From the IMG/VR virus record IMGVR_UViG_2563366903_000009, positions 1 to 40,486 of that record: a stretch of DNA of 40,486 nt; one strand, 5' to 3'. Below, in pieces: positions 6,714 through 31,299 of this stretch. A program made the position numbers and the translations under genes. Below the pieces are notes generated by a model. It was given only the letters and a program-made list of their open reading frames with translations. It had not been told where the DNA came from and ran no database searches. The first letter of the stretch is position 1, and the number at the start of each line of letters is the position of its first letter. This DNA is from a virus (taxonomy: Duplodnaviria; Heunggongvirae; Uroviricota; Caudoviricetes).

Positions 6714-6784
6714 TGTTCAACCGTCGTCGGTTGCAATTGGTATTCTGCAACCGGCGTTCATCTGATGTAAGAGATAAAGAATCG

Positions 6785-7036
6785 ATGAGCGAAGTAATCA
6801 TGATCGTCTCTCCTGGCAAATGGGTATCCGAAGAGCAGTTAATTGCACTTAAAGGAATCAAAAAGGGAACGCTAAAAAAAGCCAGGGAAAAATCGTTTAT
6901 GGAAGGAAGGGAATATAAGCATGTCGCTCATGACGGTATGCCATGGGATAACAGTCCATGCTTTTACAACCTGGAAGAAATTGATCGCTGGATTGAGCGC
7001 CAGGCATCTGCAAGACCAAGACGTCATCTTGCTTGA
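6785..7036 (+). CDS. xis: Excisionase-like protein
   Basis: Small ORF immediately upstream of int (MSEVIMIVSPGKWVSEEQLIALKGIKKGTLKKAREKSFMEGREYKHV...); start chosen within track ORF 6713-7036. Confidence 0.55.
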   Translation: MSEVIMIVSPGKWVSEEQLIALKGIKKGTLKKAREKSFMEGREYKHVAHDGMPWDNSPCFYNLEEIDRWIERQASARPRRHLA

Positions 7037-7055
7037 CTAAAAGCAACACGAACCA

Positions 7056-8351
7056 ATGAGAGAAGCTGAAATGAAATATCCGACAGGCGTGGAAAACCAT
7101 GGAGGGAAATTACGTATCTGGTTTGTTTATAAAGGTGTAAGAGTCCGGGAAAATCTTGGGGTTCCTGACACAGCAAAAAACAGACGCATTGCAGGTGAGC
7201 TACGCGCCTCTGTTTGTTACGCAATAAAAACTGGCGCTTTCGACTATGCAAAACAGTTTCCCGCCTCACACAATCTGGAAAAATTTGGTGAGGCCCGACA
7301 AGATTTAACCATAAAAGAACTGGCTGAAAAATTTCTGGCACTGAAAGAAACTGAAGTCGCAAAAACGTCACTCAACACGTACCGTGCCGTCATCAAAAAT
7401 ATTCTGAGCATAATCGGTGAAAAAAATCTTGCATCATCGATTAATAAAGAAAAATTGCTGGCGGTACGTAAAGAGTTACTGACTGGATACCAGATCCCCA
7501 AAAGTAACTATATTGTTACACAACCAGGGAGATCGGCTGTTACCGTAAATAATTACATGACAAATCTTTACGCCGTGTTCCAGTTTGGTGTTGATAACGG
7601 TTATCTGGCAGACAATCCATTTAAGGGGATCTCACCATTAAAGGAGTCGAGAACCATCCCGGATCCACTTTCGCGGGAGGAGTTTATCCGCCTTATTGAC
7701 GCGTGCAGAAATCAGCAAGCCAAAAATTTATGGTGTGTTTCCGTTTATACTGGGATTCGCCCTGGTGAACTCTGTGCGCTTGGATGGGAAGATATAGATC
7801 TGAAAAATGGAACAATGATAATCAGAAGAAATCTGGCAAAAGACCGTTTTACAGTACCAAAAACACAGGCGGGAACCAATCGTGTGATTCACCTTATTAA
7901 GCCCGCAATCGACGCTCTCCGGAGTCAGATGGCACTAACGAGACTGAGCAAAGAGCATATCATCGATGTTCACCTCAGAGAATTCGGCAGAACAGAGAAA
8001 CAAAAATGTACCTTTGTTTTTCAACCTGAAGTGTCAGCGAAAGTAAAAAATTATGGTGACCATTTTACCGTTGACTCAATAAGGCAGATGTGGGACGCAG
8101 CGGTAAAGCGTGCCGGAATCCGCCATCGCAAATCGTATCAGTCGAGACACACTTATGCCTGCTGGTCGTTAACAGCAGGAGCTAACCCGGCATTCATTGC
8201 AAACCAGATGGGCCATGCAGATGCGCAAATGGTGTTTCAGGTGTACGGGAAATGGATGTCAGAAAATAATAATGCGCAGGTAACGCTGTTAAATACACAG
8301 TTAAGCGAGTTTGCCCCAACCATGCCCCATAACGAAGCAATGAAAAATTAA
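7056..8351 (+). CDS. int: Tyrosine site-specific integrase
   Basis: 431-aa ORF with phage-integrase C-terminal catalytic region (...HTYACWSLTAGANPAFIANQMGHADAQMVFQVYGKW...); last gene before the host junction. Alternative start at 7071. Confidence 0.85.
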   Translation: MREAEMKYPTGVENHGGKLRIWFVYKGVRVRENLGVPDTAKNRRIAGELRASVCYAIKTGAFDYAKQFPASHNLEKFGEARQDLTIKELAEKFLALKETEVAKTSLNTYRAVIKNILSIIGEKNLASSINKEKLLAVRKELLTGYQIPKSNYIVTQPGRSAVTVNNYMTNLYAVFQFGVDNGYLADNPFKGISPLKESRTIPDPLSREEFIRLIDACRNQQAKNLWCVSVYTGIRPGELCALGWEDIDLKNGTMIIRRNLAKDRFTVPKTQAGTNRVIHLIKPAIDALRSQMALTRLSKEHIIDVHLREFGRTEKQKCTFVFQPEVSAKVKNYGDHFTVDSIRQMWDAAVKRAGIRHRKSYQSRHTYACWSLTAGANPAFIANQMGHADAQMVFQVYGKWMSENNNAQVTLLNTQLSEFAPTMPHNEAMKN

Positions 8352-8538: not shown

Positions 8539-9558
8539 TTATTCAGAAAAAGTGAGTAAGACTTTGCAGCAATGTTTTTGATCCAGTTCAAATAAACTAA
8601 TGGCATCCGCAACATGCTGGAAATCAAACGTATGGGTAATTAGTTTTTCTGGTTTAATTAACCCTTTACTTAACCAGTCGATAACGACCGGGAATTTATT
8701 TGCATTTAAGCGTGAAGAGAAAATAGAGAGTTCTTTTCCGGTAATTCCTTGCTGAATCACTTCAGACGGTTCACTGGAGAAGCCCATCAATACAATACGT
8801 GCCGCTGGAGAAGCCAGCGTTACGGCTTCTTTCAGGATTGAAGGATGACAAGCCGCATCGATAATTAATGTCGGCTTGATGCCTTTTTCAGCGAAAATCT
8901 CGCCAAGCGGTGTCTGGCTGTTATTAATCGCCCAGTCTGCCCCGCTCTCTTTCGCTTTTTCCAGTCGTTCATCAATGCGATCGGCAACAATCACATTCTT
9001 AACGTTATAGACGCCTTTTAATACCTGAACGATCGTCAGGCCGATTGGACCTGCACCGTAAACCAGAACGGTATCATTTTCAGTCGGTTGACCATGACCG
9101 GTAACGTTAGCCGCAATGGTAAAAGGTTCAATCATCACCGCATATTGATCGGCCACTGCTTCAGGAATTTTCCACGCATTTTTTGCCGGCACCACGGCAT
9201 ATTCACTGAAACCACCGTCAGCGTGCACACCTAATACAGCAAGTGTCGTACAAACGTTCGGCTTACCTATAGAGCACGGATAGCAATGCCCACAGCTGAC
9301 CACCGGATCGACAGCAACGCGTTCACCGACTCTGGCGCTTTCCACGCCGTCACCCACTGCATCAATGACGCCAAAGAATTCATGACCAATGACGCGCGGA
9401 TATTTCGCAAAAGGATTATGCCCACGGTAAATATGGCTATCTGAACCACAAATTCCGGCAAGTTTAACTTTTACTCGTACTTCACCCGCTGACGGGGTGG
9501 GTATTTCACGTTCGATAATCGACAGTTGATTCGGTTTTTCAATTAAAATGCTTTTCAT
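8539..9558 (-). CDS. rspB: Zinc-dependent alcohol dehydrogenase family protein RspB
   Basis: MKSILIEKPNQL...GICGSDSHIYRGHNPFAKYPRVIGHEFFGVI...; start set at the MKSIL methionine inside track ORF 8539-9582. Confidence 0.9.
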   Translation of the reverse strand: MKSILIEKPNQLSIIEREIPTPSAGEVRVKVKLAGICGSDSHIYRGHNPFAKYPRVIGHEFFGVIDAVGDGVESARVGERVAVDPVVSCGHCYPCSIGKPNVCTTLAVLGVHADGGFSEYAVVPAKNAWKIPEAVADQYAVMIEPFTIAANVTGHGQPTENDTVLVYGAGPIGLTIVQVLKGVYNVKNVIVADRIDERLEKAKESGADWAINNSQTPLGEIFAEKGIKPTLIIDAACHPSILKEAVTLASPAARIVLMGFSSEPSEVIQQGITGKELSIFSSRLNANKFPVVIDWLSKGLIKPEKLITHTFDFQHVADAISLFELDQKHCCKVLLTFSE

Positions 9559-9569
9559 TACCTTACTCC

Positions 9570-10784
9570 TTACCAGTTCCACAGCGTGCCATCTTCCAGA
9601 CGTGCGACTGGCAGATAAGCAGGTTCATAGGGATATTTCGCCGCCAGCTTTTCATCGAATTCGATGCCAAGACCCGGTTTTTCTCCCGGATGCATATAGC
9701 CGTTATCGAAAGTCCAGTTGTGCGGGAAGACTTCGAGCATTTGTTCGGAATAACCCATGTATTCCTGGACACCGAAATTGGGGACCCACAGATCAAAGTG
9801 CAGCGCCGCAGCCATGCAGACTGGTGACAAATCGGAAGGACCGTGTGAGCCAGTACGTACCTGATACAGCGAAGCAAAATCGGCAATCCGACACATACCG
9901 GTAATTCCGCCTGCATGGGTCAGCGTGGTGCGGATATAATCGATGAGTTGCTCTTCAATCAGTTGTTTGCAGTCCCAAATGCTGTTGAAGACTTCACCCA
10001 CCGCGATGGGTGTGACGGTATGTTGGCGAATGAGACGGAAGCATTCCTGGTTTTCCGCAGGCGTCGGGTCTTCCATCCAGAACATGCGATAATCTTCAAT
10101 GCTCTTACCAAAGCGCGCCGCTTCAATAGGCGTTAAGCGATGGTGCATGTCATGCAGCAGATGTTCATCAAAACCAAACTTGTTACGTACCGCGTCAAAC
10201 AATTTCGGCATGAAATCGAGGTATTTCTCCGTCGACCACAGCTGCTCTTCCGGCCACTGTCCTTTGGTTGCGGGTTCATAAGCCAGACCTTTACCTTTCG
10301 ACATGCCGTAGGTGGTTTTCATACCAGGGATTCCGCACTGCACGCGGATGGCTTTGAATCCCAGCTCCTGATGACGGGCATAATCATCCAGAGCTTCATC
10401 AATACTGTGACCGGTGGTATGGCAATAAACCATCACCCCTTCACGAGACGCGCCGCCGAGTAACTGGTAAAGCGGCATGTTGGCAGCTTTGGCTTTAATA
10501 TCCCACAGCGCCATATCAACCGCTGAAATGGCCGACATCGTAACCGGACCGCGACGCCAGTAAGCACCTTTATAGAAAAACTGCCAGATATCTTCGATAC
10601 GGTGTGCATCGCGACCAATAAGCTGCGGACAAAGGTGATCCTGCAAATAAGAGGCCACGGAAAGCTCACGTCCATTTAGGGTGGCATCCCCAAGGCCCGT
10701 AATACCGTCCTCAGTGGTGATTTTTAATGTGACGAAATTACGCCCCGGACAGGTAACAAAAACTTCAGCCTTTACGATCTTCAT
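9570..10784 (-). CDS. rspA: Enolase-superfamily mannonate dehydratase-like protein RspA
   Basis: [50 protein letters not shown]...; start set at MKIVK inside track ORF 9570-10817. Confidence 0.9.
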
Positions 10785-13712: not shown

Positions 13713-16138
13713 ATGTCCAAAAATAAACAAATGGTGGGCATCAGCCGCAGAACACTCGTTAAATCTACCGCGATAGGTTCTCTGGCGCTGGCTGCAGGCG
13801 GTTTTTCTTTGCCGTTTACCCTGCGCAGTGCAGCAGCAGCGGTACAACAGGCCAGCGAAAAAGTGGTCTGGGGTGCCTGTTCCGTCAACTGTGGTAGCCG
13901 CTGTGCACTTCGTCTGCATGTTAAAGATAATGAAGTGACCTGGGGGGAAACTGACAACACCGGCAGCGACGAGTATGGCAACCATCAGGTACGCGCCTGT
14001 TTGCGCGGTCGCTCCATCCGTCGGCGTATTAATCATCCCGATCGCCTGAATTACCCAATGAAACGCGTGGGCAAACGCGGCGAAGGCAAATTCGAACGGA
14101 TTAGCTGGGATGAAGCCCTGGATACTATCGCCAGTAGCCTGAAAAAAACCGTCAAACAATATGGCAATGAGGCTGTATATATTCAGTACTCTTCGGGGAT
14201 TGTTGGCGGCAATATGACCCGCTCTTCTCCATCAGCCTCGGCGGTCAAACGCCTGATGAACTGCTACGGCGGTTCACTAAATCAGTATGGCTCCTACAGC
14301 ACTGCGCAAATTTCCTGTGCCATGCCCTACACCTACGGCAGTAATGATGGCAACAGCACCACGGATATTGAAAACAGCAAGCTGGTCGTGATGTTTGGTA
14401 ACAACCCGGCTGAAACCCGCATGAGCGGCGGTGGCATCACTTATCTTCTTGAAAAAGCGCGCGAGAAATCGAACGCAAAAATGATTGTTATCGATCCGCG
14501 ATATACCGATACGGCTGCTGGTCGTGAAGATGAATGGCTTCCTATTCGCCCGGGCACCGATGCCGCGCTGGTTGCGGGTATTGCCTGGGTATTGATTAAC
14601 GAAAATCTCGTTGATCAACCTTTTCTCGATAAATACTGCGTCGGCTATGACGAAAAAACCTTACCCGCAGATGCACCCAAAAATGGTCACTATAAAGCCT
14701 ATATTCTTGGTGAAGGTGATGATAAAACAGCGAAAACGCCGCAGTGGGCTTCGCAAATTACAGGTATCCCGGTAGACCGTATCATCAAACTGGCGCGTGA
14801 AATTGGCACAGCAAAACCCGCTTATATCTGCCAGGGCTGGGGGCCGCAACGCCAGGCAAACGGCGAGCTGACGGCACGCGCTATTGCTATGTTGCCTATT
14901 TTGACGGGCAATGTCGGCATCAGCGGCGGAAATAGTGGTGCGCGTGAATCGACCTACACCATTACCATCGAACGCTTGCCGGTGCTGGATAATCCGGTCA
15001 AAACGTCAATCTCCTGCTTCAGCTGGACAGATGCTATCGATCATGGCCCGCAAATGACGGCAATCCGCGACGGCGTCCGGGGCAAAGATAAACTAGATGT
15101 GCCCATTAAGTTCATCTGGAACTACGCGGGAAATACCCTGGTTAATCAGCATTCTGACATCAACAAAACGCATGAAATTCTGCAGGACGAATCGAAATGC
15201 GAAATGATTGTGGTCATCGAAAACTTTATGACCTCATCGGCAAAATATACCGACATTCTGCTGCCAGACCTGATGACCGTTGAGCAGGAAGATATTATTC
15301 CTAACGACTACGCCGGTAACATGGGATATCTCATTTTCCTCCAGCCTGTCACCAGCGAAAAATTCGAACGCAAACCAATTTACTGGATCCTGAGTGAAGT
15401 CGCGAAACGTCTTGGACCTGACGTCTATCAAAAGTTCACTGAAGGTCGCACGCAGGAACATTGGTTACAACATCTGTACGCCAAAATGCTTGCCAAAGAT
15501 CCGGCATTACCGTCTTACGACGAATTAAAAAAATGGGTATCTATAAGCGTAAAGATCCCAATGGTCATTTTGTCGCCTACAAAGCATTTCGTGACGACCC
15601 CGAGGCAAATCCACTTAAAACGCCTTCCGGTAAGATTGAAATTTATTCCAGCAAGCTGGCGGAAATTGCCCGTACCTGGGAACTGGAAAAAGATGAAGTG
15701 ATAAGCCCACTGCCGGTTTATGCCTCAACCTTTGAAGGCTGGGACTCCCCTGAACGTAGTGCCTTCCCACTGCAACTGTTTGGTTTCCATTACAAATCCC
15801 GTACGCACTCGACCTACGGCAACATTGATGTCCTGAAGGCAGCCTGCCGTCAGGAAGTGTGGATCAACCCTATAGATGCACAGAAACGTGGGATTGCCAA
15901 CGGCGATATGGTGCGGGTGTTTAACCATCGTGGCGAAGTTCGGCTACCAGCCAAAGTGACACCACGCATTCTCCCTGGAGTTAGTGCTATGGGCCAGGGA
16001 GCCTGGCACGAGGCCAATATGTCTGGCGATAAAATCGACCACGGCGGCTGTGTGAATACGCTAACCACTCTGCGCCCTTCACCACTGGCGAAGGGAAACC
16101 CGCAGCACACTAATCTGGTCGAGATCGAAAAAATATAA
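13713..16138 (+). pseudogene. ynfE: DMSO-reductase-family molybdoenzyme catalytic subunit YnfE, disrupted by -1 frameshift in an A7 tract
   Basis: Track ORFs 13713-15701 and 15461-16138 together align end-to-end with the intact paralog ynfF. The frame change maps to the A run at 15527-15533 (..DELKK|MGIYKRKDPNGHFVAYKAF..). Tat-type signal and Cys cluster at the N-terminus. Confidence 0.75.
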
Positions 16139-16195: not shown

Positions 16196-18622
16196 ATGAT
16201 GAAAATCCATAACACAGAGGCGCTCATGTCGGCTGAAATCAGTCGTAGAAGTCTGATGAAAACCTCCGCACTTGGCAGTCTCGCGCTGGCAAGCAGTGCT
16301 TTCACTTTGCCGTTTTCCCAAATGGTCCGAGCGGCACAGGCACCGGTAGAAGAGAAAGCGGTCTGGAGTTCCTGCACCGTTAACTGCGGGAGCCGCTGTC
16401 TGTTACGTTTGCATGTGAAAGATGACACCGTGTACTGGGTAGAGTCTGATACGACAGGTGACGACGTTTACGGTAATCATCAGGTTCGGGCATGTTTACG
16501 CGGGCGCTCTATCCGCCGACGGATGAATCATCCTGACAGGTTGAAATATCCCATGAAGCGCGTCGGCAAGCGCGGTGAAGGTAAATTTGAACGGATAAGT
16601 TGGGACGAAGCCCTGGATACCATCAGTGATAATCTTCGGCGGATCCTAAAAGATTACGGCAATGAGGCTGTACATGTTCTCTATGGAACAGGCGTAGATG
16701 GCGGAAACATCACCAACTCAAACGTCCCGTACCGTCTGATGAACTCTTGCGGTGGTTTTCTCAGTCGCTATGGCAGCTATAGTACCGCACAGATCAGTGC
16801 CGCAATGAGTTATATGTTCGGTGCCAATGATGGCAACAGCCCGGATGATATCGCCAATACGAAACTGGTCGTTATGTTCGGAAATAACCCGGCAGAAACA
16901 CGGATGAGCGGCGGTGGTGTCACTTACTACGTCGAGCAAGCCCGCGAACGTTCAAACGCACGCATGATCGTCATCGATCCACGTTATAACGACACAGCTG
17001 CCGGGCGTGAAGATGAATGGCTGCCCATTCGCCCTGGCACCGATGGCGCACTGGCCTGTGCGATTGCCTGGGTACTGATTACTGAAAACATGGTCGATCA
17101 GCCATTTCTCGACAAATATTGTGTTGGTTACGATGAAAAAACGCTGCCAGCTAACGCTCCACGTAACGCGCATTATAAAGCCTATATTCTGGGCGAAGGG
17201 ACTGACAGCATAGCTAAGACGCCGGAATGGGCAGCAAAAATCACCAGCATCCCAGCAGAAAAAATTATCCAGTTGGCACGAGAGATCGGTTCAGCAAAAC
17301 CGGCTTATATTTGTCAGGGTTGGGGGCCACAACGACATTCCAACGGCGAGCAAACGTCCCGCGCTATTGCCATGCTTTCCGTTCTCACCGGTAACGTCGG
17401 CATAAACGGCGGCAACTCAGGTGTACGCGAAGGTAGCTGGGATCTGGGGGTAGAATGGTTCCCGATGCTCGAGAATCCAGTTAAAACGCAGATTTCCGTC
17501 TTTACATGGACAGATGCCATCGACCATGGTACGGAAATGACCGCGACCCGTGATGGTGTTCGAGGAAAAGAAAAACTGGATGTCCCCATCAAGTTTTTAT
17601 GGTGCTACGCCAGTAACACATTGATCAATCAACATGGCGACATCAATCACACCCATGAGGTGCTTCAGGATGACAGCAAGTGCGAGATGATTGTTGGCAT
17701 TGACCACTTCATGACTGCCTCGGCTAAGTATTGCGATATCCTGTTACCCGACCTGATGCCAACAGAGCAAGAAGACCTTATCTCTCATGAGTCTGCCGGG
17801 AATATGGGCTATGTGATCCTCGCCCAACCCGCAACCTCAGCAAAATTTGAACGCAAACCCATCTACTGGATGCTGAGCGAAGTCGCCAAACGCTTAGGAC
17901 CAGACGTTTATCAAACCTTTACTGAAGGTCGCAGTCAGCATGAATGGATCAAATATCTCCATGCGAAAACGAAGGAACGTAACCCTGAGATGCCCGACTA
18001 CGAGGAGATGAAAACGACCGGGATCTTTAAGAAAAAATGCCCGGAAGAACACTACGTCGCTTTCCGCGCATTCCGTGAAGATCCACAGGCAAATCCGTTG
18101 AAAACACCTTCGGGGAAAATCGAAATTTATTCTGAACGACTGGCGAAGATTGCAGATACCTGGGAATTGAAAAAAGATGAAATTATTCATCCCCTTCCTG
18201 CGTATACCCCAGGTTTTGATGGCTGGGACGATCCCCTGCGGAAAACCTATCCACTGCAACTAACGGGCTTCCACTACAAAGCGCGTACCCACTCCAGCTA
18301 CGGCAATATTGATGTGTTACAGCAGGCCTGCCCACAAGAGGTGTGGATCAACCCTATTGATGCTCAGGCACGCGGTATCCGTCATGGCGATACCGTGCGG
18401 GTATTTAACAATAATGGAGAAATGCTGATTGCCGCAAAAGTGACTCCGCGTATTCTGCCTGGCGTTACCGCCATCGGGCAAGGTGCGTGGCTTAAAGCGG
18501 ATATGTTTGGTGACCGGGTCGATCACGGCGGCAGTATCAATATTCTGACCTCTCACCGCCCTTCACCGCTGGCAAAGGGAAACCCGTCGCACAGCAATCT
18601 TGTCCAGATCGAAAAGGTTTAA
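16196..18622 (+). CDS. ynfF: DMSO-reductase-family molybdoenzyme catalytic subunit YnfF
   Basis: 808-aa ORF with twin-arginine signal (SRRSLMKTSALGSLALA), Cys cluster CTVNCGSRC and molybdopterin oxidoreductase-like body; tandem paralog of ynfE. Confidence 0.9.
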   Translation: MMKIHNTEALMSAEISRRSLMKTSALGSLALASSAFTLPFSQMVRAAQAPVEEKAVWSSCTVNCGSRCLLRLHVKDDTVYWVESDTTGDDVYGNHQVRACLRGRSIRRRMNHPDRLKYPMKRVGKRGEGKFERISWDEALDTISDNLRRILKDYGNEAVHVLYGTGVDGGNITNSNVPYRLMNSCGGFLSRYGSYSTAQISAAMSYMFGANDGNSPDDIANTKLVVMFGNNPAETRMSGGGVTYYVEQARERSNARMIVIDPRYNDTAAGREDEWLPIRPGTDGALACAIAWVLITENMVDQPFLDKYCVGYDEKTLPANAPRNAHYKAYILGEGTDSIAKTPEWAAKITSIPAEKIIQLAREIGSAKPAYICQGWGPQRHSNGEQTSRAIAMLSVLTGNVGINGGNSGVREGSWDLGVEWFPMLENPVKTQISVFTWTDAIDHGTEMTATRDGVRGKEKLDVPIKFLWCYASNTLINQHGDINHTHEVLQDDSKCEMIVGIDHFMTASAKYCDILLPDLMPTEQEDLISHESAGNMGYVILAQPATSAKFERKPIYWMLSEVAKRLGPDVYQTFTEGRSQHEWIKYLHAKTKERNPEMPDYEEMKTTGIFKKKCPEEHYVAFRAFREDPQANPLKTPSGKIEIYSERLAKIADTWELKKDEIIHPLPAYTPGFDGWDDPLRKTYPLQLTGFHYKARTHSSYGNIDVLQQACPQEVWINPIDAQARGIRHGDTVRVFNNNGEMLIAAKVTPRILPGVTAIGQGAWLKADMFGDRVDHGGSINILTSHRPSPLAKGNPSHSNLVQIEKV

Positions 18623-18632
18623 GGAGTAGCCC

Positions 18633-18746
18633 ATGACCACACAATATGGATTTTTTATCGATTCCAGCCGCTGTACTGGCTGTAAAACCTGCGAACTGGC
18701 GTGCAAAGATTTTAAAGTTGGTTACGTATCGTTTAAAATCAATTAG
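18633..18746 (+). pseudogene. ynfG: 5' fragment of Fe-S subunit gene ynfG, truncated by prophage insertion
   Basis: MTTQYGFFIDSSRCTGCKTCELACKDFK (ferredoxin-type Cys motif), then unrelated sequence VGYVSFKIN* from about 18717. RBS AGGAG upstream of ATG at 18633. Confidence 0.7.
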
Positions 18747-18790
18747 ATAGCCCGTCATTTCTGCGCTCACACGTCCCAACATTGAAAAAC

Positions 18791-18824
18791 ATGCAAAGCT
18801 TTGTAAGCCGATGCAAAGCTTTGT
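18791..18824. repeat. Tandem pair of palindromic 14-mers ATGCAAAGCTTTGT, 20 bp centre-to-centre
   Basis: Copies at 18791-18804 and 18811-18824; each contains the perfect palindrome CAAAGCTTTG. Lies about 75 bp inside the prophage end. Confidence 0.45.
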
Positions 18825-18910
18825 GTGTCTCACTTTTGTCCCAATACCAATCCGAATCCACCCTTTGTCATCATTGAGAAATGGCAAGGAAGAAAAGGAT
18901 GTTACTGCAC

Positions 18911-18997
18911 GATTTGACAAATCCGCCAGAGCTATCGCATACTGACCGCACTACAACGTCAGCGGTCAACCGCACCCGATAGCTTTGCGGCTTTTTT
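18911..18997 (+). promoter_or_regulatory. Leader cassette 1 upstream of antirepressor 1: palindrome over a -35 TTGACA, then short hairpin and T6 tract
   Basis: GATTTGACAAATC (18911-18923); GCGGtcaaCCGC (18962-18973), then GCGG and TTTTTT (18992-18997). Same architecture as cassette 2. Confidence 0.4.
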
Positions 18998-19151
18998 ATG
19001 CCTGTTTACAGGTATCGCCATATCAATGGCGGGTCGAGAGAGCCTAATACAATACCCTTTCGGGAAATACGCTCCGCCGTCTGACGCGGTAGTTGAAGCC
19101 CGCCACCCCACTAAGGTGGCAGTCAATACTAAAACGTCAGGAGTCATAATT

Positions 19152-19787
19152 ATGACTAATCAACTCATCCCCGTATTCAACGGTTCTATCTCAAACCAAG
19201 CAGCCCTTCTATGCAATGCTCGCAATCTACACGCTTTCCTTGGGGTTGGTAAACGCTTTGCATCGTGGATAACAGAACGTATTGCTGAATATGGTTTCGT
19301 TGAAAATCAGGACTATATGATTGCTTCCCAAATTCGGGAAGCAAAAGGTAGAGGCGGTCACAACCGCAAGGAATACCACCTCACCCTCGACACAGCCAAA
19401 GAGCTTGCGATGGTTGAACGTAACGAAAAAGGTCGCCAGATCCGCCGCTACTTCATCGAGTGCGAAAAGAAACTTCGCAACATTCAGCCAGTACAAGCAG
19501 AACCACAGCCGCAATTCACAGCCGAGGAAATCATCCTCCTTTGCTACATGCAGCTCTGGATGGAAAAAGCCCAGGACCTCAGCAAACACCTGTATCCCAT
19601 CATGAAAGAGCTGAACTCCTCATACACGAACAAGCTGTATGACATTGCGTTTGAGACCATCTACATGGTGACGAAGAACAGAGATGCGTTACTGAGGGAG
19701 GTAACACGTCTCGACATGTCAAGTTCCGTTATCCAGCGGGCCATGCCAATGCTGAAAAGCCTGCGGGCAAGACAATTCGAGTTTTAA
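19152..19787 (+). CDS. Phage antirepressor, KilA-C-type N-terminal region with shared Ant C-terminal domain
   Basis: ATG at 19152 with AGGAG RBS; N-terminal ...GKRFASWITERIAEYGFVENQDY...EYHLTLDTAKELAMVERNEKGRQIRRYFIECEK; C-terminal ~90 aa near-identical to the second antirepressor. Confidence 0.7.
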   Translation: MTNQLIPVFNGSISNQAALLCNARNLHAFLGVGKRFASWITERIAEYGFVENQDYMIASQIREAKGRGGHNRKEYHLTLDTAKELAMVERNEKGRQIRRYFIECEKKLRNIQPVQAEPQPQFTAEEIILLCYMQLWMEKAQDLSKHLYPIMKELNSSYTNKLYDIAFETIYMVTKNRDALLREVTRLDMSSSVIQRAMPMLKSLRARQFEF

Positions 19788-22923: not shown

Positions 22924-25900
22924 TTAATCCACTCCCACTTTTTTGTTGTACTCGCGGTTAAACCGATCCACGGCAATTTTCATATCCCGCTCTACCGATT
23001 TCACCATCGCCGACTGTTGCGCCAGACTGAGAGTACTGTCGGCGTAAATGGCATCACGTTGTTTACGCAAATCCTTCAGTCTCTTCCGGGTATCCTGCAT
23101 AAGCCCGTTCATCGACAATTTTCCGTTGTTCTCGTCAATGAATGCCGTTCTTTCTGCACCGGTCAGACTCTTCAGCTCTGCGTGGTACTGCGCAACCTCC
23201 GTCATCCGGTCATACATCTTCTGCTGGTCAGCATACGGCATCACCTCACCCGAAATTTTCCCCAGGAAGGGCACCTGCTGCTCCGGTATATCAATACCGT
23301 TCAGCGATTTCACCGCCGCATCTGTGGTTTTGGAAATGAAGCGCCCTGTCCCTCCGGAGATATAGTCAATCCAGAATTTCAGCGATTCCGGTGTGATATC
23401 CACCGCGCCGGGACGATACTGGCTGCCACCTGAGAACGCATTCAGCCAGGATGCAAACGCCTTGTACGCCTCAGGCGTTGAACGTCTGCCCAGCTGGCTG
23501 TCCGGTTTCGGTGTGCCAAATGGCATGTTCTCCTGGTAAATCTGCGCCCCCATGAAGTTTTCATTCATGGCAAGGTTCGCAAACGGACGCAGAATGGTCG
23601 GCGCTGCATTTTTCAGCAATGCCCCGGACAGTGTTTCCGACGTTTCACTGCCCACAGGACTGAATGCCCCCAGGATACCACCGACAACATTACCGGCAGC
23701 ACGTGAAGCAGTCAGGTCGCCCGCTGCCACACCTTCAGCAGTATGCCCGAGCAGGAAGAAAACGTTGTACCCGTAAGGCAGAGGAATACTCCAGTACTCT
23801 CCGGCCTTGCCCCCGAACACCGATTTCATAATGACGAGGTTACGCTCTTTCACATGAGACGGCACCTTGTCATACCAGTTAACCCCGTCATCATCCTCCC
23901 CCGCAACACTGCGGTTAAGCGAGCCAAGCAGATAACCCGCTCCCACAGCTGCAAGCGCGATTTTCTGCGGTACATTGAGATTCTTCCAGCGAAGGCGCTC
24001 CGGTAACGGCCCGTCGCCATTAAGATGTCCGAGCGTTCTCACCAGGTTTGCGGTCCCCTGAATGCTGGCGTTGGCAAACATATACAGCGAGTTCATCAGC
24101 GCTCCCTGCTCACCACGACGGTTAAAGTTCACCGTCATGTTTTTGGCAAGAGACGCCGCCTGCTGGCGTGACAAACCAGCATCACGGGCGTGTTTATAGG
24201 CAGAAAGACGCAGAGCGTTTTCAACCGCCCCGTTGGCATCCTCGACAAGGTTAAGGAACGAATTCCATGCACCGATACTCTGGCCTTTCCATCCGCCCTT
24301 CGCCAGCGACACAAGGCGATCCATTTCCTTCTGCTGGCCCTCAAGGTCACCCATGTTAAACCAGCCGGTTTTACCTCCGTCCTCAACAAACTCTTTCCAC
24401 ACTTTCTGCCACTGTGCGCCTTTGCCCGTGAGGGTTTTGCCACGCAGACTGGCGTACACGGCTGACATTGCAGAACGGCTGTCTTTGACTACAGCCAGGG
24501 CGGATAAGTTATCCAGCCCTTTCAGTTTACCGTCGCTCCTTCCCTGCTCCGCCTTCAGGTTCATCACCGCCGTCTGCACGTCACGGATGAAGTTACTGAC
24601 CAGAAATTCCGGGTTATACGACGTGTTCACCGTTGCCAGGAAGCGGTTAACTTTCCCCAGCGTACGGATTACGGCGTTACTGGTTTCCGGCCCCATGTTC
24701 TTCATCGCACGCATCAGGCGCGGATCATGAAGTTTAATGTAGTAAGTTTTGCCGTCCTTTTTGGTGGTGAAGTAGCGATCCGCCATCATTGCCATCGGCA
24801 CAGGGCGCTCGACAACTTCGCGAATGGTTTCACCAGTTTCCTGGTCCTTGCGCTCTGCAATCACACGCATTGTATCCGGTCTGTCATCAGTGAATACCTG
24901 CCAGTAATCCTTGTCGGGATTATCCTGTACCAGTTTCAGGAAGGCGTTACCCACTTCATTTTTGCGATTGCGGATCAGCGATTCACTCAAATCCTGTATC
25001 GCCTGAGTGGAAGGAGACTGTGCGCGGGATGCACGCCCCATGGCCTGCTTACTTTCACGCCCGCCGATGGTGAATCCCTTGCCTGTACGTGGCTGTGACA
25101 CCACACCGTCAACATCCTGCCCTTTCAGGGGGACGTAGTAACGGTAGGCTTTCTGCCAGGCATCCACCACGCCGCTCTCTTCCAGTCCTGCCTCACGGAT
25201 AATCTCACGGCGACGGGCCAGCATATCGTCAATAATCCCTGCCAGACGGTCATACTGTGCCTGTTTGCCGCTGTTACGCACACGCTGCATGATTTCCGCC
25301 GCTTCCGCGTTGGTCATCCCCGAACCGCCGTCCGGCATTTTCGGGTTGATTTTCGCAATATGCGCGTTACGTTCCGGCGCGTGACGGGCGTAGAGGTACT
25401 CATCCAGATCGGCCTGCGCAATTTTGTAGTCCGCCAGCAATTTGGCCAGCGGCTGAACGTAGCGCTCCTTCATTACGTTCAGGTCGTTTTCCGCCTTCCC
25501 GTGGAAGAGTTCTTCTGCCATATAAGCGTTGTTACTGTCGTCCACTTTGCCGCCAGTTTTACGGATATTCTCCTGAACAGCTTTCAGCACCTGGAATTTA
25601 TCCTGCATCTGGCGCACAAAACGCGATGCAATAGTCTCTTCCGGTGTCAGACTGCTGGTACGGGAGTAATACGGCCCCTTGCGAATATCCTCAGGATGTA
25701 GTATTTTAAATCCAGAAGAGCCGTTGATGGTGTTCGCCTCGGGCAATTGGAGCCCGACTGCATGAAGCCATTCAGCGGCTTTTTCTTTATTAAGATACAG
25801 CAAAGATGTATCAAGCTGATCCTGCAAAGCACTCCTTTTGTCCTTTCCATAGGCACTGGCAATTTTGTTTATCTCTGCAAATCCATCGCCTTTCACATGG

Positions 25901-28900
25901 GTATGAATTGCAACAATGACAGGATTCCCTTTTGTATCGGTCGCCTGAATTAAAGATACCAACGCATCCGATTCAGTTTTCGAACGCATAACTGCTACCG
26001 GATCTGTCAGAAGTTGAGGCAAATCAGCCAGTGTTTCCACTGACACAAAGTGTTCTCTGATCTCTGGTCTCGTAGCCTTATGCACAACAGATGCAGGCAT
26101 AACCAGTTCAAGATCTGGTGCCCCCAATGCGCGCAAAACACGAGGCGTATCCCCAACTCTGAGCATTTCCCTTCTGGAAACCGATTGTAATCCGGCAATG
26201 CGACGCACTTCTGAAGCAAACTGCTTTGCATCATAGGCGTCAGCCTTAAACGGATCAGGTTTACCACTACGGGAGTACTGAGACGATGCGCCCGCGCCAT
26301 CCTCACGCGGCGTGTAACCTTCCCGCACACGCTGGCCTAACGTACGGATGGTCTCGCGAACAAGTCTGATATCGTTCAGTTCCGTCGGCTTCAGTAACCC
26401 CGTACGACGCAGTACCCCTTTGACCAGGGCAACAACACGCTCCCATGCCGCCACGAATTTATTCGGCTGTTTCTCCGCCATATGTGCCAGAAATTCACCC
26501 GCCTGCACTTCCGGTGATTCCTTACCATAGGACGCATCAACCTTACGCCAGGCTTCACGGATGGTGGCGTTATCACTGTCGCGGGTTTTCAGCACGGTTT
26601 TGATGATCGTCTGATATTCCGCTGGCGTGACAACATGCTCCATGGCATGGTGGATAATCTCGTGACGCAACTTCTCGCGTACGGTCCGCCCGTCAGGGAT
26701 GTTATCCGCCACCAGGACAATTTCACGTTTATCCGGACGATAGAACGCGTGCACCTTGCCGTAACCGTCGAATGATTCACCCGCCAGTGCTTCAGCCTCT
26801 TTCTGTGACTTCACCACGCGGACCTTCAGGTCACTGTCCTTAATGCCACTAATCACGCCACGGGCAACCGCTTCAACCTGCGGGACCGGGCTGCCTTTGG
26901 CTTCCGCACTGCGGTTAACATCCGAAATGAGATTGCCTTCAGGTGTGCGGGTCACGCCCTTACGGGAATAAAACGCAACGCCCTTGTCCGTCTCACGGGT
27001 TTTCAGGGTGCGGAACAGGTGATCGAATGCCTCACGAATGCCACCATCCAGTTCCGCATTCGTCGGATAAGCGTAGGTGTTATCTGTGTTGTGCTCAGGT
27101 GCCTTACGGATATTGACCAGATAATCATTCTCCACGCCAGCCGTACGCGCCTTATCCTGAACATAACGCTCAAAGGCACGTGCCGCCATTTCAACATCCG
27201 TTGACCAGTACGGTTTTGAGCGCACCTCATCGAGAAGAGCTGAACGACGCGGCATGTCACTGTTTTTAATGGCCTCAATGACACCTTTAAACGCGTCGTA
27301 AACCTCCTGACGCACCGGATATTCAGCGTCAACAAACCTGCCGTCTTTAAATACGCGCTTAACACGCCTGGCTTCCGTCATAAAGTCACCACCTGACGTA
27401 ATCTTCCCGTCAGTGGAAACATCATAACGACCAAAATAATTATCCAGTGAATGGAACCATTCGTGCGCCAGCGCACCCGGTCCGTTACCTTTTGTCAGGT
27501 TGATTGCCACCTCACCCGGCTCATAGTGTGCTGCCGCCTTACCCTTACCACGGGCACCAAATGCCAGGCCAAGACGACCGTTCAGGGAAAGCGCTTTTGT
27601 CGGTACATTCAGTACTTCAGCAAGGTCATGCAGCGAGTCATAAGCCCGGTTCAAATCAGCCTGACGACGCGGACCTTCCACGTAGTTACCAAACTGCACA
27701 CCACGAAAACCAAACGCATCGCTGAACTGCTTCGGTGAGACATCACCCTTGCGGCGTTCTGGCCCGGTACGATCGCGGTTGGTGGCGTTACGCTGCTCCT
27801 CACGGGAAATCTCACGCATCTCCTTCACATGACGAACAAGCTCATCACGATGTGAATCAATGTACTTACGCGCATCACTGGCTGACTTAAAGCCACCTCT
27901 CACCCGCATTTTGTTTTTGCCGTAAGCAATAAAAATATCGCCACTGCGGGTATTCCGGTATACGTCAAAGCTGATTTTGTCATCCGGTGACGGTGCTGTT
28001 TTTTCATCACCTTTCGCCTGTGATTTTTCCTCCTGCTCTGCAAACCAGGATTTTGCCTTTGTCAGTAATTCATCCCTGCTTTCCGAGAAAAAGAGATTGC
28101 TCCCCTTATTGTCCTTATTGCGCAGTGAATAAAGTTTCCGTGGCGGATCGTAACGTTTCCCTCCTGCCGCCTGATACACACCGGATACCACCCGATAAGC
28201 AGAAGCCTTGTCTATCTGCGAGGGTGGCAGCGTGCGTAACAGTTGCCATGTGTCCGCGTAACGGGCGGGCATTCTGCCTTCCATCCACTCAGCAAGCCGT
28301 CCGGCAGTCACTTTTCCTTCCAGCATTCCCGCCACACTTGTGCGGATGCTCTTTACACTCTCCACCCACTTCACTGCATTGAGTTTCGTCTTCGCCGGAA
28401 TATCGCTACGATACAGCGCTATCATTGCCAGGGTATCAGCATCGGCACCTTCGTTCGCCAGTTTTGCGTAGTCCGGTTTCGGGAACAGTTTGCTCAGCGG
28501 TTGCGTGACATAATCCCTGTCTTCCAGCGTTTTACCCAGTGTTTCGGCAAGCTGTGCATAACGGTGTTTTGCCGCGCCCTTAATCTCCTCGCCAAAGTCT
28601 TCAATTTTTGCACCACGCGCCTGCTGGTGAGTGCTCGGTTTATCTACCGGCACCGGCACCGGCACCTCAGTATCCGGAACATCGGTTATGGTCTGGCGAT
28701 TATCCCCGGTCTGTCTGCGCGCTTCTGCCTGCTGTGCCAGTTCCGGAAGGGAGTCACGAACCATACGAGGGAGTGATTCAGGATGTGGCATATCAACCCC
28801 ACGCTGTTCAGGTGCAGGAAGTCCTTCACGCACTGGTGCTGTGGCGTTCTGCTCATCCGGTGACGGCAGACCACGACGAACCGGTTCGCTCTCCAGTATT

Positions 28901-31299
28901 TCCCCCTGGCGACCAGCGGCATTTTCCGGTGCCTGCGCACGTCCTTTCTGGAAACTCTGGCCCTTCACCTCACCGGTTGTGGTAAAACGACCACCACGTC
29001 CGGCCTGATTTTCATCCGGCGTACGCGCCACTTCTCCTGGTAACGGATATCCCTGTCCGGGATGAATATCGCCGGGAGCGGGAAGGCGTGGACGCTCAGT
29101 TAACTCCTGTGCTGTCGGACCGGCATCACCTTCAGCCATCTGTGAACGTACAAGCTCCTCTGCCGTCGGCGCGTTGCCACGGGCAAGGCGGGCCTGCACT
29201 TCTGTATCATCCCCCGTGAAACCACGGAATCGCGGGTCACGCATGAACGCGGGCTGCTCCATCGGTTCAGCATCAGCAATACGCTCTCCGTCAGCCAGGG
29301 TGTTAATGGTCTCCGTTGCCACATCTTCAGAGAACGCAGGATTATCCATTTCAACGGCATACTGATTCTCGCCTTTCTTCACTACGGACGGTTTCAGGCC
29401 GGTGGCGCTGGCATTGCGGAAAACATCGCTCCCCAGAGCACTTTTTTCATCCGTGAAATAACGGTTGTCCGGACGCACCTTTTCAATGCGTTCTGCTGGT
29501 CTGGACGCACCACTCCCGTTAATTTCAATACGAACTTCATCCGGATCGCGGAACCGCACCGTCGGGTAAATACTCCCGTCGCCATCATCCGCATTTTCCG
29601 GCTGTGGCTGTGCCTCCGGTCTGGCCTCCTGCTGAGGGCGAAGCACATCACGGATAGCCCGTAACTGCTGCTCTTCAGTATCAGTACGCCCTTCCTTCAG
29701 GCTGAGTTTTCGGTATTCCTCAAGCAGTTCAGGGCGCGGCTTCGCCTTCAGCTCATCCATCACCGCCTGTCGCTTCGCCTGTTCATCCAGTTCATTTAAC
29801 AGCTGGCTGGCGGCTTCCCGGCGATGAACGGCAGACGTGTCTCCCTCAGGTGCCATATCCGCATCAGCATACTGTTCCAGAAGTTGCTCGCGATTCATGC
29901 CCTGCATGGATTCGCGATGCTGTGCCACCGGATCAGCCGGTTCGGGTTGCGGGGCTGCTTCACCCTGCTGTACGACTTCAGCCTCACGCATGGCGGTTTC
30001 TTCTGCGGCCTGACGTTTTCCACGATATCCGGCAACCGCACCGAACGGTGCGCCCATCGCTGCACCAAGAGCGGCTCCTTCGATCGTTGCGTCAGCTACC
30101 CCCTCCCATGGTGATACATCCATTCCGGCAGTCTCACGCAACGTCATATTTTCCTGGTAACGCGAATAGCCGCCCTGCGCCGCATTAATCGTCCCCTGTT
30201 CCGTGGCATTTCTGACAATGCCGCTTTTAACGGTCTTCGCCGTGCCCCGCATCGCCAGATTAAACAACTGAGCATCGCCCAGTTTTGCCGCCATGGCATT
30301 CACAGCCAGCAATTCAGGATCGGTTGCCAGCTGCGCGCGCACCTCATCGGCAACACGCTCTTTTGCCAGATCCATTTTCTGGCGATCAGTAAGCTGTGCG
30401 TGCTGCGGATCTGCATCAATTGACAAAAACGTCTGCTGAAATTTCGGGGACTTCGCCAGCTCAGAGTAATCCGCGTTAAGAACAGAGTCTGCTGCTGCCA
30501 TTGCACTCTGCCCCTGTGCGCTGGCTGAGGAATGGGTGATCAGGCCTGCCTGGAATAAATCCGGCATTTTTTTATCGACAGCTTCTGCTGCCAGTGCGGT
30601 AGCTCTTTCCGGCTGCATCCCTGCCGCAATGTATTTTTTCTCCAGCCCGGCGGTCAGCACTTTTCGCAGAGTGACTTCACCCAGCTTTTTAGTCACACCG
30701 CCTGCAACCAGATCAGGTACAAGCGCACCAATCAGGTTTACACCCTTCGTCAGCAAGACCGCAGAATCATCATAGCCTTCACTCATTGGCGTGTTCAGCG
30801 CACGAACAGCACCCGGCGACATCTGATCTGTCAGCCATTCATCCGAGGCTTTGGCACCATCACTGACTGCCTTGCCTGTGGCCTTCAGACCTTTACCGAC
30901 AGTATCAGTCACCGCGTTTTTCCCTGTTCCATCGGGAATGTTTTTAATCGCATCTCCAACAGAAGGTGGTGCGCCCAGTTCCTTTTGCGTGGAGGAAGGC
31001 GGCATGTAAACATCCGTCATGAAAGACGACAACCCGGCAAGCGTTTTTACAGGATTATTTACAAGTGCATCACCGAGTCCACGGGCCATTTCCCCTGTTC
31101 CCCGGACGGACTGGGCGAAACCTTTACCCATTGTTGGCAATACATCGCCCAGGCTGAACGACGTGCTGTGATCAACAGCGTTCTCCGGGTTGTTGAAAAA
31201 ATCCTGCCAGTAATTTTCTCCCGGCTGCTTAATGTTCAGACTGCTGCGGTTCTGGTTACCCAATTGCGCTTCAGGGCGCTGCTCATCTGAAAAAGCCAT
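22924..31299 (-). CDS. Giant 2,791-aa protein with two HExxH zincin-like motifs; candidate virion-packaged polyvalent protein
   Basis: Single uninterrupted ORF with RBS GGAG before the ATG; HEWFH at aa 1279-1283 (27451-27465) and HEIIH at aa 1546-1550 (26650-26664); acidic/Pro-rich low-complexity region at about aa 430-850; last gene of the minus-strand block. All plus-strand ORFs inside it are antisense artefacts. Confidence 0.8.
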   Translation of the reverse strand: MAFSDEQRPEAQLGNQNRSSLNIKQPGENYWQDFFNNPENAVDHSTSFSLGDVLPTMGKGFAQSVRGTGEMARGLGDALVNNPVKTLAGLSSFMTDVYMPPSSTQKELGAPPSVGDAIKNIPDGTGKNAVTDTVGKGLKATGKAVSDGAKASDEWLTDQMSPGAVRALNTPMSEGYDDSAVLLTKGVNLIGALVPDLVAGGVTKKLGEVTLRKVLTAGLEKKYIAAGMQPERATALAAEAVDKKMPDLFQAGLITHSSASAQGQSAMAAADSVLNADYSELAKSPKFQQTFLSIDADPQHAQLTDRQKMDLAKERVADEVRAQLATDPELLAVNAMAAKLGDAQLFNLAMRGTAKTVKSGIVRNATEQGTINAAQGGYSRYQENMTLRETAGMDVSPWEGVADATIEGAALGAAMGAPFGAVAGYRGKRQAAEETAMREAEVVQQGEAAPQPEPADPVAQHRESMQGMNREQLLEQYADADMAPEGDTSAVHRREAASQLLNELDEQAKRQAVMDELKAKPRPELLEEYRKLSLKEGRTDTEEQQLRAIRDVLRPQQEARPEAQPQPENADDGDGSIYPTVRFRDPDEVRIEINGSGASRPAERIEKVRPDNRYFTDEKSALGSDVFRNASATGLKPSVVKKGENQYAVEMDNPAFSEDVATETINTLADGERIADAEPMEQPAFMRDPRFRGFTGDDTEVQARLARGNAPTAEELVRSQMAEGDAGPTAQELTERPRLPAPGDIHPGQGYPLPGEVARTPDENQAGRGGRFTTTGEVKGQSFQKGRAQAPENAAGRQGEILESEPVRRGLPSPDEQNATAPVREGLPAPEQRGVDMPHPESLPRMVRDSLPELAQQAEARRQTGDNRQTITDVPDTEVPVPVPVDKPSTHQQARGAKIEDFGEEIKGAAKHRYAQLAETLGKTLEDRDYVTQPLSKLFPKPDYAKLANEGADADTLAMIALYRSDIPAKTKLNAVKWVESVKSIRTSVAGMLEGKVTAGRLAEWMEGRMPARYADTWQLLRTLPPSQIDKASAYRVVSGVYQAAGGKRYDPPRKLYSLRNKDNKGSNLFFSESRDELLTKAKSWFAEQEEKSQAKGDEKTAPSPDDKISFDVYRNTRSGDIFIAYGKNKMRVRGGFKSASDARKYIDSHRDELVRHVKEMREISREEQRNATNRDRTGPERRKGDVSPKQFSDAFGFRGVQFGNYVEGPRRQADLNRAYDSLHDLAEVLNVPTKALSLNGRLGLAFGARGKGKAAAHYEPGEVAINLTKGNGPGALAHEWFHSLDNYFGRYDVSTDGKITSGGDFMTEARRVKRVFKDGRFVDAEYPVRQEVYDAFKGVIEAIKNSDMPRRSALLDEVRSKPYWSTDVEMAARAFERYVQDKARTAGVENDYLVNIRKAPEHNTDNTYAYPTNAELDGGIREAFDHLFRTLKTRETDKGVAFYSRKGVTRTPEGNLISDVNRSAEAKGSPVPQVEAVARGVISGIKDSDLKVRVVKSQKEAEALAGESFDGYGKVHAFYRPDKREIVLVADNIPDGRTVREKLRHEIIHHAMEHVVTPAEYQTIIKTVLKTRDSDNATIREAWRKVDASYGKESPEVQAGEFLAHMAEKQPNKFVAAWERVVALVKGVLRRTGLLKPTELNDIRLVRETIRTLGQRVREGYTPREDGAGASSQYSRSGKPDPFKADAYDAKQFASEVRRIAGLQSVSRREMLRVGDTPRVLRALGAPDLELVMPASVVHKATRPEIREHFVSVETLADLPQLLTDPVAVMRSKTESDALVSLIQATDTKGNPVIVAIHTHVKGDGFAEINKIASAYGKDKRSALQDQLDTSLLYLNKEKAAEWLHAVGLQLPEANTINGSSGFKILHPEDIRKGPYYSRTSSLTPEETIASRFVRQMQDKFQVLKAVQENIRKTGGKVDDSNNAYMAEELFHGKAENDLNVMKERYVQPLAKLLADYKIAQADLDEYLYARHAPERNAHIAKINPKMPDGGSGMTNAEAAEIMQRVRNSGKQAQYDRLAGIIDDMLARRREIIREAGLEESGVVDAWQKAYRYYVPLKGQDVDGVVSQPRTGKGFTIGGRESKQAMGRASRAQSPSTQAIQDLSESLIRNRKNEVGNAFLKLVQDNPDKDYWQVFTDDRPDTMRVIAERKDQETGETIREVVERPVPMAMMADRYFTTKKDGKTYYIKLHDPRLMRAMKNMGPETSNAVIRTLGKVNRFLATVNTSYNPEFLVSNFIRDVQTAVMNLKAEQGRSDGKLKGLDNLSALAVVKDSRSAMSAVYASLRGKTLTGKGAQWQKVWKEFVEDGGKTGWFNMGDLEGQQKEMDRLVSLAKGGWKGQSIGAWNSFLNLVEDANGAVENALRLSAYKHARDAGLSRQQAASLAKNMTVNFNRRGEQGALMNSLYMFANASIQGTANLVRTLGHLNGDGPLPERLRWKNLNVPQKIALAAVGAGYLLGSLNRSVAGEDDDGVNWYDKVPSHVKERNLVIMKSVFGGKAGEYWSIPLPYGYNVFFLLGHTAEGVAAGDLTASRAAGNVVGGILGAFSPVGSETSETLSGALLKNAAPTILRPFANLAMNENFMGAQIYQENMPFGTPKPDSQLGRRSTPEAYKAFASWLNAFSGGSQYRPGAVDITPESLKFWIDYISGGTGRFISKTTDAAVKSLNGIDIPEQQVPFLGKISGEVMPYADQQKMYDRMTEVAQYHAELKSLTGAERTAFIDENNGKLSMNGLMQDTRKRLKDLRKQRDAIYADSTLSLAQQSAMVKSVERDMKIAVDRFNREYNKKVGVD

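Follow-up and report, generated by a model that had tools for sequence, protein, structure and literature searches.

The paired 14-mers that lie just inside a prophage junction in ynfG are, in our assessment with high confidence, an inherited part of a P22-type attP arm, where they occupy a periodic spacer of fixed length between putative integrase arm-type sites. The finding is real but largely ordinary, in that it concerns a Shiga-toxin-phage-like prophage at the known ynfG site; insertion site, phage group and att family were all known already, attP of P22 has been dissected biochemically, and nothing here overturns current understanding. What emerges is a sequence-level map of a widespread att arm, in which a proximal site is followed by a periodic spacer with a constant length of 48 bp and then by tandem distal sites, and with it a concrete way to separate a spacer read as DNA by Xis from an RNA hairpin.

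The first-pass annotation of the 40.5-kb window (by which we mean the whole stretch of DNA analysed) had placed a prophage insertion in ynfG at about 18717, where the frame leaves ...ELACKDFK for unrelated sequence and a stop, and alignment to the intact gene bears this out. From its start at 18633, ynfG equals intact K-12 ynfG base for base through 18717 and is unrelated from 18718, the frame at the junction reading MTTQYGFFIDSSRCTGCKTCELACKDFK and then VGYVSFKIN* where intact YnfG has DLGPEV.... When 18400-19100 was compared by megablast with 5,426 complete E. coli genomes, nearly all aligned only to query base 318 (equivalent to 18717), and 82 of them share the junction, with a match over the full stretch. 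E. coli FORC_069 is 100% identical to the window across this interval, and its copy of the ynfG fragment bears the RefSeq label of an incomplete 4Fe-4S binding protein. The window stops within the prophage, and the far junction and the integrase, which fall beyond it, were located in FORC_069 as a sister genome: the far junction lies ~62.5 kb off, with the distal ynfG remainder beside it and a 387-aa integrase gene (intD, P22-like) 52 bp from that remainder. As had been proposed, ynfE and ynfF are thus split from ynfG'-ynfH-dmsD.

Comparison with intact ynfG also yields the core overlap. The window-side junction reads ...GATTTTAAAG/TTGG and the integrase-side junction in FORC_069 ...CAACAACTTTAAAG/ATCTTGG (slashes mark the junctions), and attB, taken from intact ynfG, is GATTTTAAAGATCTTGG; the 7-bp core TTTAAAG is present in all three, the far junction being that of the sister genome. 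In the reconstructed attP, a perfect 14-bp palindrome, CAACTTTAAAGTTG, is centred on this core. Further upstream, at ~15526, ynfE has a 1-bp deletion relative to FORC_069 ynfE that causes a frameshift, with a stop after codon 662 of 808. Either ynfE is a true pseudogene here, of a sort often met in Shigella, or the deletion is a sequencing error; if real, the ynfEFGH-dmsD selenate reductase operon would be broken twice in this strain, by the ynfE frameshift and by the ynfG insertion.

To the right of 18717, the closest relatives of the DNA are the ends of Shigella phages POCJ13 and 75/02 Stx, followed by 933W-like Stx phages. POCJ13, 75/02 Stx and the Stx prophages of E. coli at ynfG/Z2577 have the same junction and arm sequence, the ends of the two named phages being 100% identical to the window there. 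Because the window prophage matches these phages at only ~95% identity over about two thirds of its first 4 kb, it is a mosaic relative of POCJ13/75/02 Stx and not the same phage. The target gene, which is Z2577 in EDL933 and corresponds to S1742, is a classical insertion site of Stx phages, used by 75/02 Stx and POCJ13 (PMC5447701) and by an Stx1a prophage of an avian STEC (PMC10562709). Experiments with phiPOC-J13 have yielded lysogens of S. flexneri 2457T and of E. coli MG1655 that carry the phage at S1742/ynfG (PMC4193171).

A second affiliation emerges from sensitive blastn searches, in which 18732-18849 matches, at 82-85% identity over ~118 bp, the P arm of attP in Salmonella phages P22 (AF217253, 2914-3030), L and ST64T and in other phages (SfV and ENT47670 among them). 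The two arms have the same parts in the same order: a proximal GTCCCA, a 48-bp spacer with two units that contain ATGCAAAG, and tandem distal GTCCCA sites. The integration proteins agree as well, although these had to be examined beside the other arm in sister elements (POCJ13 and FORC_069), the window being without that end. In P22, xis (116 aa) overlaps int (387 aa) just upstream of attP. In POCJ13, the 387-aa Int gives a Phage_integrase match and is 71% identical to P22 Int over 377 aa, ungapped, and a 123-aa HTH_17 ORF overlapping the start of int shows ~72% identity to P22 Xis, with which it shares the recognition region ISRPTA.NWIRTGRLQATRK. Where the systems differ is the core: P22 uses a ~46-bp core in the thrW tRNA gene, whereas the window prophage uses 7 bp in a protein-coding gene. 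Given the P22 arm homology together with P22-like Int and Xis, the prophage uses an integration module of P22 type in which ynfG has replaced thrW as the target of the core. In annotation, the ynfG 5' stub is then best joined with the 7-bp core and roughly the first 126 bp of prophage sequence into one attachment-site junction of a P22-type module, here retargeted from a tRNA gene to a protein-coding gene. In the accessible literature we found no statement that expressly connects Stx-type phages integrating at ynfG with the att arm of P22.

Table 1. Coordinates of the ynfG junction, of the elements of the attachment arm and of block copies found beyond the att sites of other phages.
Feature	Location	Strand	Remarks
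ynfE	13713-16138		
ynfF	16196-18622		
ynfG 5' fragment, host (B) side	18633-18717	+	28 codons + 1 base (first 84-85 bases); identity to intact K-12 ynfG
Core/overlap TTTAAAG	18711-18717		common to attB and both prophage junctions
P arm of P22-type attP, int-distal arm (predicted)	18718-18843	+	homology to P22-type attP P arms
Putative IHF-like site AATCAATTAGATA	18737-18749	+	one mismatch to WATCAANNNNTTR; read from the letters
Block CGTCATTTCTGCGCTCACAC	18753-18772	+	adjoins proximal arm site; alternative candidate Xis site
Putative proximal integrase arm-type site GTCCCA	18773-18778	+	same hexamer in P' arm
48-bp inter-site spacer	18779-18826	+	five 10-bp units; holds both 14-mers
17-bp hairpin	18789-18828	+	arms 18789-18805 and 18812-18828, loop AGCCGA, then CTCACTTTTG
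14-mer ATGCAAAGCTTTGT, first copy	18791-18804		
14-mer ATGCAAAGCTTTGT, second copy	18811-18824		
Putative distal tandem arm-type sites	18827-18843	+	degenerate GTCTCA 18827-18832 and GTCCCA 18838-18843, 11 bp apart
Block copy, lambda	NC_001416, ~27467-27505		~40 bp past tI hairpin
Block copies, HK106 and JEP4			lambda-type Int
Block copies, HK542 and HK446			SfX-type Int
Block copy, Stx2 phage 1717			
Block copy, SEN22			~300 bp outside its own P22-type arm
Block copy, L236			CGACAC-type Int

Within the arm, the best candidates for integrase arm-type sites are the GTCCCA motifs, because they are repeated in both arms and switch with the Int family as expected. The tandem GTCCCA-N5-GTCCCA (11-bp spacing) recurs in the 3' end of int, that is, in the P' arm, of FORC_069, POCJ13 and P22, and the P arm presents one GTCCCA, the 48-bp spacer and then GTCTCA-N5-GTCCCA. 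Where the integrase belongs to another family, the two arms again agree with each other but use another hexamer: HK542 and HK446 have GGCACA, and L235-L258 have CGACAC. A pattern scan of IMG/VR returned 120 related arms, which collapse to 61 unique ones; the distal sites keep fixed positions in these, with GTCYCR at the first in 60 of the 61 and GTCYCA at the second in 57. One scanned record (L234/L094, IMGVR_UViG_2927693043_000001) has a hybrid att site, with a CGACAC-type tandem on the int side and a GTCCCA-type other arm; its halves do not match, and the site is possibly non-functional or recently recombined. Between the core and the proximal site, the putative IHF-like site has the position of TTTTAAGTCAACAACATA in P22-type arms, and the block that follows contains GCTCACAC, which is kept in 8 of 8 phage-database arms whichever core they use; across the 120 IMG/VR arms, conservation of this block is partly imposed by the search pattern.

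The 14-mers themselves were described correctly in number and place: ATGCAAAGCTTTGT occurs exactly twice in the window, 20 bp apart from start to start, with the first copy 74 bp inside the junction (about 75 bp in the first-pass annotation), and every further match in the window has 3 mismatches. Their description as palindromes stands only in part, since it is just the inner 10 bp, CAAAGCTTTG, that form a perfect palindrome, the whole 14-mer being an exact direct repeat. Nor is palindromy within each unit conserved: when each 14-mer was considered as a conserved palindrome of its own, 37 of 500 shuffles reached the covariation score and 249 of 500 the number of pairs changed on both sides, no better than chance rearrangement.

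The repeats are better described as parts of the spacer, whose units read, in order, TTGAAAAACA, TGCAAAGCTT, TGTAAGCCGA, TGCAAAGCTT and TGTGT. The first 14-mer corresponds to unit 2 and the second to unit 4, both running on into the beginning of the following unit, with a weaker unit in between. Bar one outlier, the length of 48 bp is constant across the 61 unique arms, and yet the sequences fall into at least 18 clusters with less than 75% ungapped identity to one another. What the clusters share is periodic. T is kept at spacer positions 3, 13, 23, 33 and 43 in 14-17 of the 18 cluster representatives, and runs of A are found at 8-10 in 17-18 representatives and at 16-18, 27-28 and 37-38 in 12-14. 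A-occupancy has a period of 9-10 bp (permutation p=0.0012 over the 18 spacer clusters), a signal that survives removal of most of the hairpin family discussed below. Over 26 representatives the whole-arm consensus is tgaTgc.AAAAgaTgcaAAg.c.Tg.aAac...Tg.aAA.c..Tg..t, and the units have the consensus TG.AAA at a period of ~10 bp, in tandem, about one helical turn apart and adjoining an arm-type site. No description of a fixed 48-bp periodic spacer was found in the accessible literature.

Why should a spacer be fixed in length and periodic in sequence while varying so freely elsewhere? The reading that we tentatively favour is that the array is an Xis-type bending segment of the arm. The prophage entered ynfG at the 7-bp core, leaving the P arm as its integrase-distal end, with core, IHF-like site, conserved block, one GTCCCA, 48-bp spacer and two tandem arm sites in that order. 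The spacer is occupied by an array of five TG.AAA units with a 10-bp period, of which the 14-mers, as units 2 and 4, are the best two copies. On this model the array would act as an accessory bending segment of the recombination complex; P22-type Xis would bind it cooperatively, one monomer per helical turn, and the resulting bend would return integrase at the distal sites to the core during excision. In lambda, X1 and X2 are direct repeats ~20 bp apart, with the weak X1.5 between them, beside arm site P2, and the array would be the counterpart of X1-X1.5-X2, which likewise abuts an arm site. The two arrangements are alike in spacing, in the weaker middle site, in being rich in A-tracts and in their place in the int-distal arm. 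They differ in that there is no sequence similarity between the sites, lambda Xis being unrelated in sequence to P22-type Xis, and in that the lambda sites lie between P2 and the core, whereas the window array lies between two sets of arm sites.

We prefer this reading because tandem bending sites one turn apart are a signature of recombination directionality factors (RDFs) and because of the layout shared with X1/X1.5/X2. RDFs, P22 Xis included, bind tandem repeats one helical turn apart and bend att DNA (PMC7498355). The arm homology, the layout of sites, the fixed spacer length, the periodic pattern and the P22-like Int and Xis of sister prophages are directly supported; our inference is that the array is read by Xis and does not act through intrinsic curvature or some other factor. 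Recognition would have to be loose, because essentially the same Xis recognition region, in P22, Kati, S107 and L123, goes with spacers that are alike only at the periodic positions. Three IMG/VR scans for pairing between Xis and spacer returned mostly near-identical Xis proteins or prophage ends without a P arm, and the few intact cases with a diverged Xis include one (L094/L234) that is the hybrid described above.

Three further observations count against an Xis array. First, the commonest spacer type, that of Kati and SfV, has lost the A-run of unit 4 and kept the hairpin. Second, the block at 18753-18772 is another candidate Xis site, lying between arm site and IHF site as in lambda. Third, a block with the hairpin is found beside the att sites of lambda, HK542, HK446, HK106, JEP4, SEN22 and L236, which have different Xis and Int proteins.

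In the window, both units have CTTTGT as their second half (the corresponding second halves in P22 are CCTTGC and ATTTGT), which makes the units identical and the hairpin in question perfect. In this lineage the units are also self-complementary, and a 17-bp transcript hairpin may provide a second role at the RNA level. Taken as the explanation of the repeats, a stem-loop in att-crossing transcripts, akin to lambda tI/sib or to an insulating terminator, is a close rival, if on balance somewhat less likely than an Xis array. In the free phage, where the core separates it from int, it would end transcripts of int sense or expose them to RNase III; in the prophage it would keep transcription of ynfEF from running on into the antirepressor genes. 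Both int and ynfEFG are read in the + sense, and the RNA of that strand has a folding energy of -22.7 kcal/mol (z=-5.3, compared with z=-0.76 for the minus strand) and is terminator-like in a consensus scan. No other strong hairpin comes before it on the far side of the core from int, a position held in lambda by tI/sib, which likewise is transcribed in the int sense and lies just past the P arm or inside it; lambda tI differs in sequence and has a GC-rich stem with U6 directly after it.

Comparative evidence points the same way. In a gap-free alignment of 39 distinct homologues, 88.5% of cells in the long hairpin are paired and 7 pairs have changed on both sides, a number reached by 4 of 500 shuffles; the covariation score is reached by none of the 500, and the palindromes within units show no such signal. 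The compensatory events are, however, few, and the homologues are related by descent. In Kati/SfV-type arms, copy 2 has been rewritten (ATTGTGAGGCCTTATGTG, 6-7 bases), and 12 Watson-Crick and 4 G-U pairs are still formed. The depositors of phage L annotated a terminator over the element, though on the opposite strand.

Yet, according to where the energy cut-off is set, no more than 4 to 8 of the 18 spacer clusters can form a comparable hairpin, so that it is not required in the arm, and the idea of the hairpin as a universal feature of the spacer was dropped since most clusters are without one. The + strand tail, CUCACUUUUG, has a U-run of only four U that begins 5-6 nt past the stem, and on the minus strand UUUUU comes directly after the weaker stem. 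Nor could a strand be assigned to the hairpin from G-U as against A-C cells (69 versus 49), energies being similar on both strands and the family showing no consistent bias, although the copy in the window itself clearly prefers the + strand. T-rich linkers, considered as a companion of hairpin spacers, gave no signal (cluster counts of 2/5 versus 2/9). Finally, no Rfam family matched at gathering score over 18787-18830, the only hit being a spurious mir-19 (26 bits against 50).

Phages whose integrases differ from the P22 type also have the block, hairpin and tandem GTCYCA together, a short way outside their att sites and with its orientation to int unchanged, as does SEN22 outside its own P22-type arm (Table 1). 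These outside copies carry 1-3 outright mismatches, compared with 0-2, usually 0-1, within P22-type arms; the lambda copy is somewhat decayed (GCACAAAGCCTCGCAATCCAGTGCAAAGCTTTGTGTGCC) and lies beyond tI/sib, outside the minimal attP, and we know of no described function for it. On the simplest reading, the outside copies are remnants of int-att cassette replacement at one genomic position. They may also have an independent function, for example in terminating transcription where the int and tail-fibre units of HK phages converge. A regex search for copies of the element downstream of non-hairpin arms returned none, with a pattern that was probably too strict, and remnant copies in lambda and other phages were not found described in the accessible literature.

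An Xis array and an RNA hairpin are not mutually exclusive. The spacer DNA might be the Xis or bending segment, the RNA (or a cruciform in supercoiled attP) a sib-like retroregulator or insulator across the core from int, and the decaying outside copies fossils of cassette replacement, although we regard the combination of all these parts as unlikely. If it were true, the cruciform could be a built-in stand-in for the IHF-induced turn and would help to explain IHF-independent recombination of P22.

Similarly improbable, in our estimate, is a purely architectural spacer that involves no sequence-reading protein and sets distance and phasing, adding intrinsic curvature from phased A-tracts or an attP cruciform. 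Fixed length with freely varying sequence is what such a spacer would look like, A-runs are phased at 9-10 bp in all clusters, and P22 integration is possible without IHF according to PMC7581858, which cites Smith-Mungo 1994. However, T at exact 10-bp steps and the TG that opens each unit look base-specific, and the A3 and T3 runs of CAAAGCTTTG, being half a turn apart, should largely cancel curvature.

That the 14-mers are integrase arm-type sites or operators of a dimeric repressor, as the first-pass annotation had also offered, is highly improbable: two exact copies do lie within an att arm, and a third ATGCAAAG sits 69 bp across the core in the 3' end of int in FORC_069, but that copy is absent from P22 and other relatives, it is GTCCCA that recurs in tandem on either side of the core and changes from one Int family to the next, and the 14-mers lie between its copies and are therefore not arm sites themselves, palindromy within units is not conserved, and the element is common to P22, L, SfV, lambda and HK phages with unrelated immunity regions. 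Of the dimeric proteins originally suggested, this leaves the directionality factor as a live option, favoured here if unproven.

Several further features of the window deserve brief mention. Between the att arm and the antirepressor region there is a 21-codon ORF, MARKKRMLLHDLTNPPELSHT (18882-18948, + strand), followed ~20 bp later by a weak stem CCGCA...TGCGG with CTTTTTTA (18970-18999, + strand). An Rfam match to sRNA-Xcc1 at 19028-19112 (+ strand) just reaches the gathering score (53 bits, E=1.6e-8). An AntA/P22AR antirepressor gene (19152-19787) follows 40 nt downstream of this match, and a promoter-like TTGACA-18-CATACT stands ahead of it at 18914-18943. We take this layout to resemble the c4-RNA/ant arrangement of phage P1 immI. 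On the minus strand, a 2,791-aa ORF (22924-31299) has LPD5, LPD1, MuF_C and LPD38 domains and encodes a large polyvalent protein of the kind typical of 933W-like short-tailed Stx phages.

The window also contains the end of a second prophage (4275-8351, + strand), which encodes a RecE/exonuclease VIII-like protein (812 aa), a DUF1233 excisionase (107 aa) and a 431-aa integrase with Arm-DNA-bind_2. This prophage, which only ~10 kb separate from the one in ynfG, stops shortly before rspB (8539-9582, minus strand), where K-12 has its Qin prophage.
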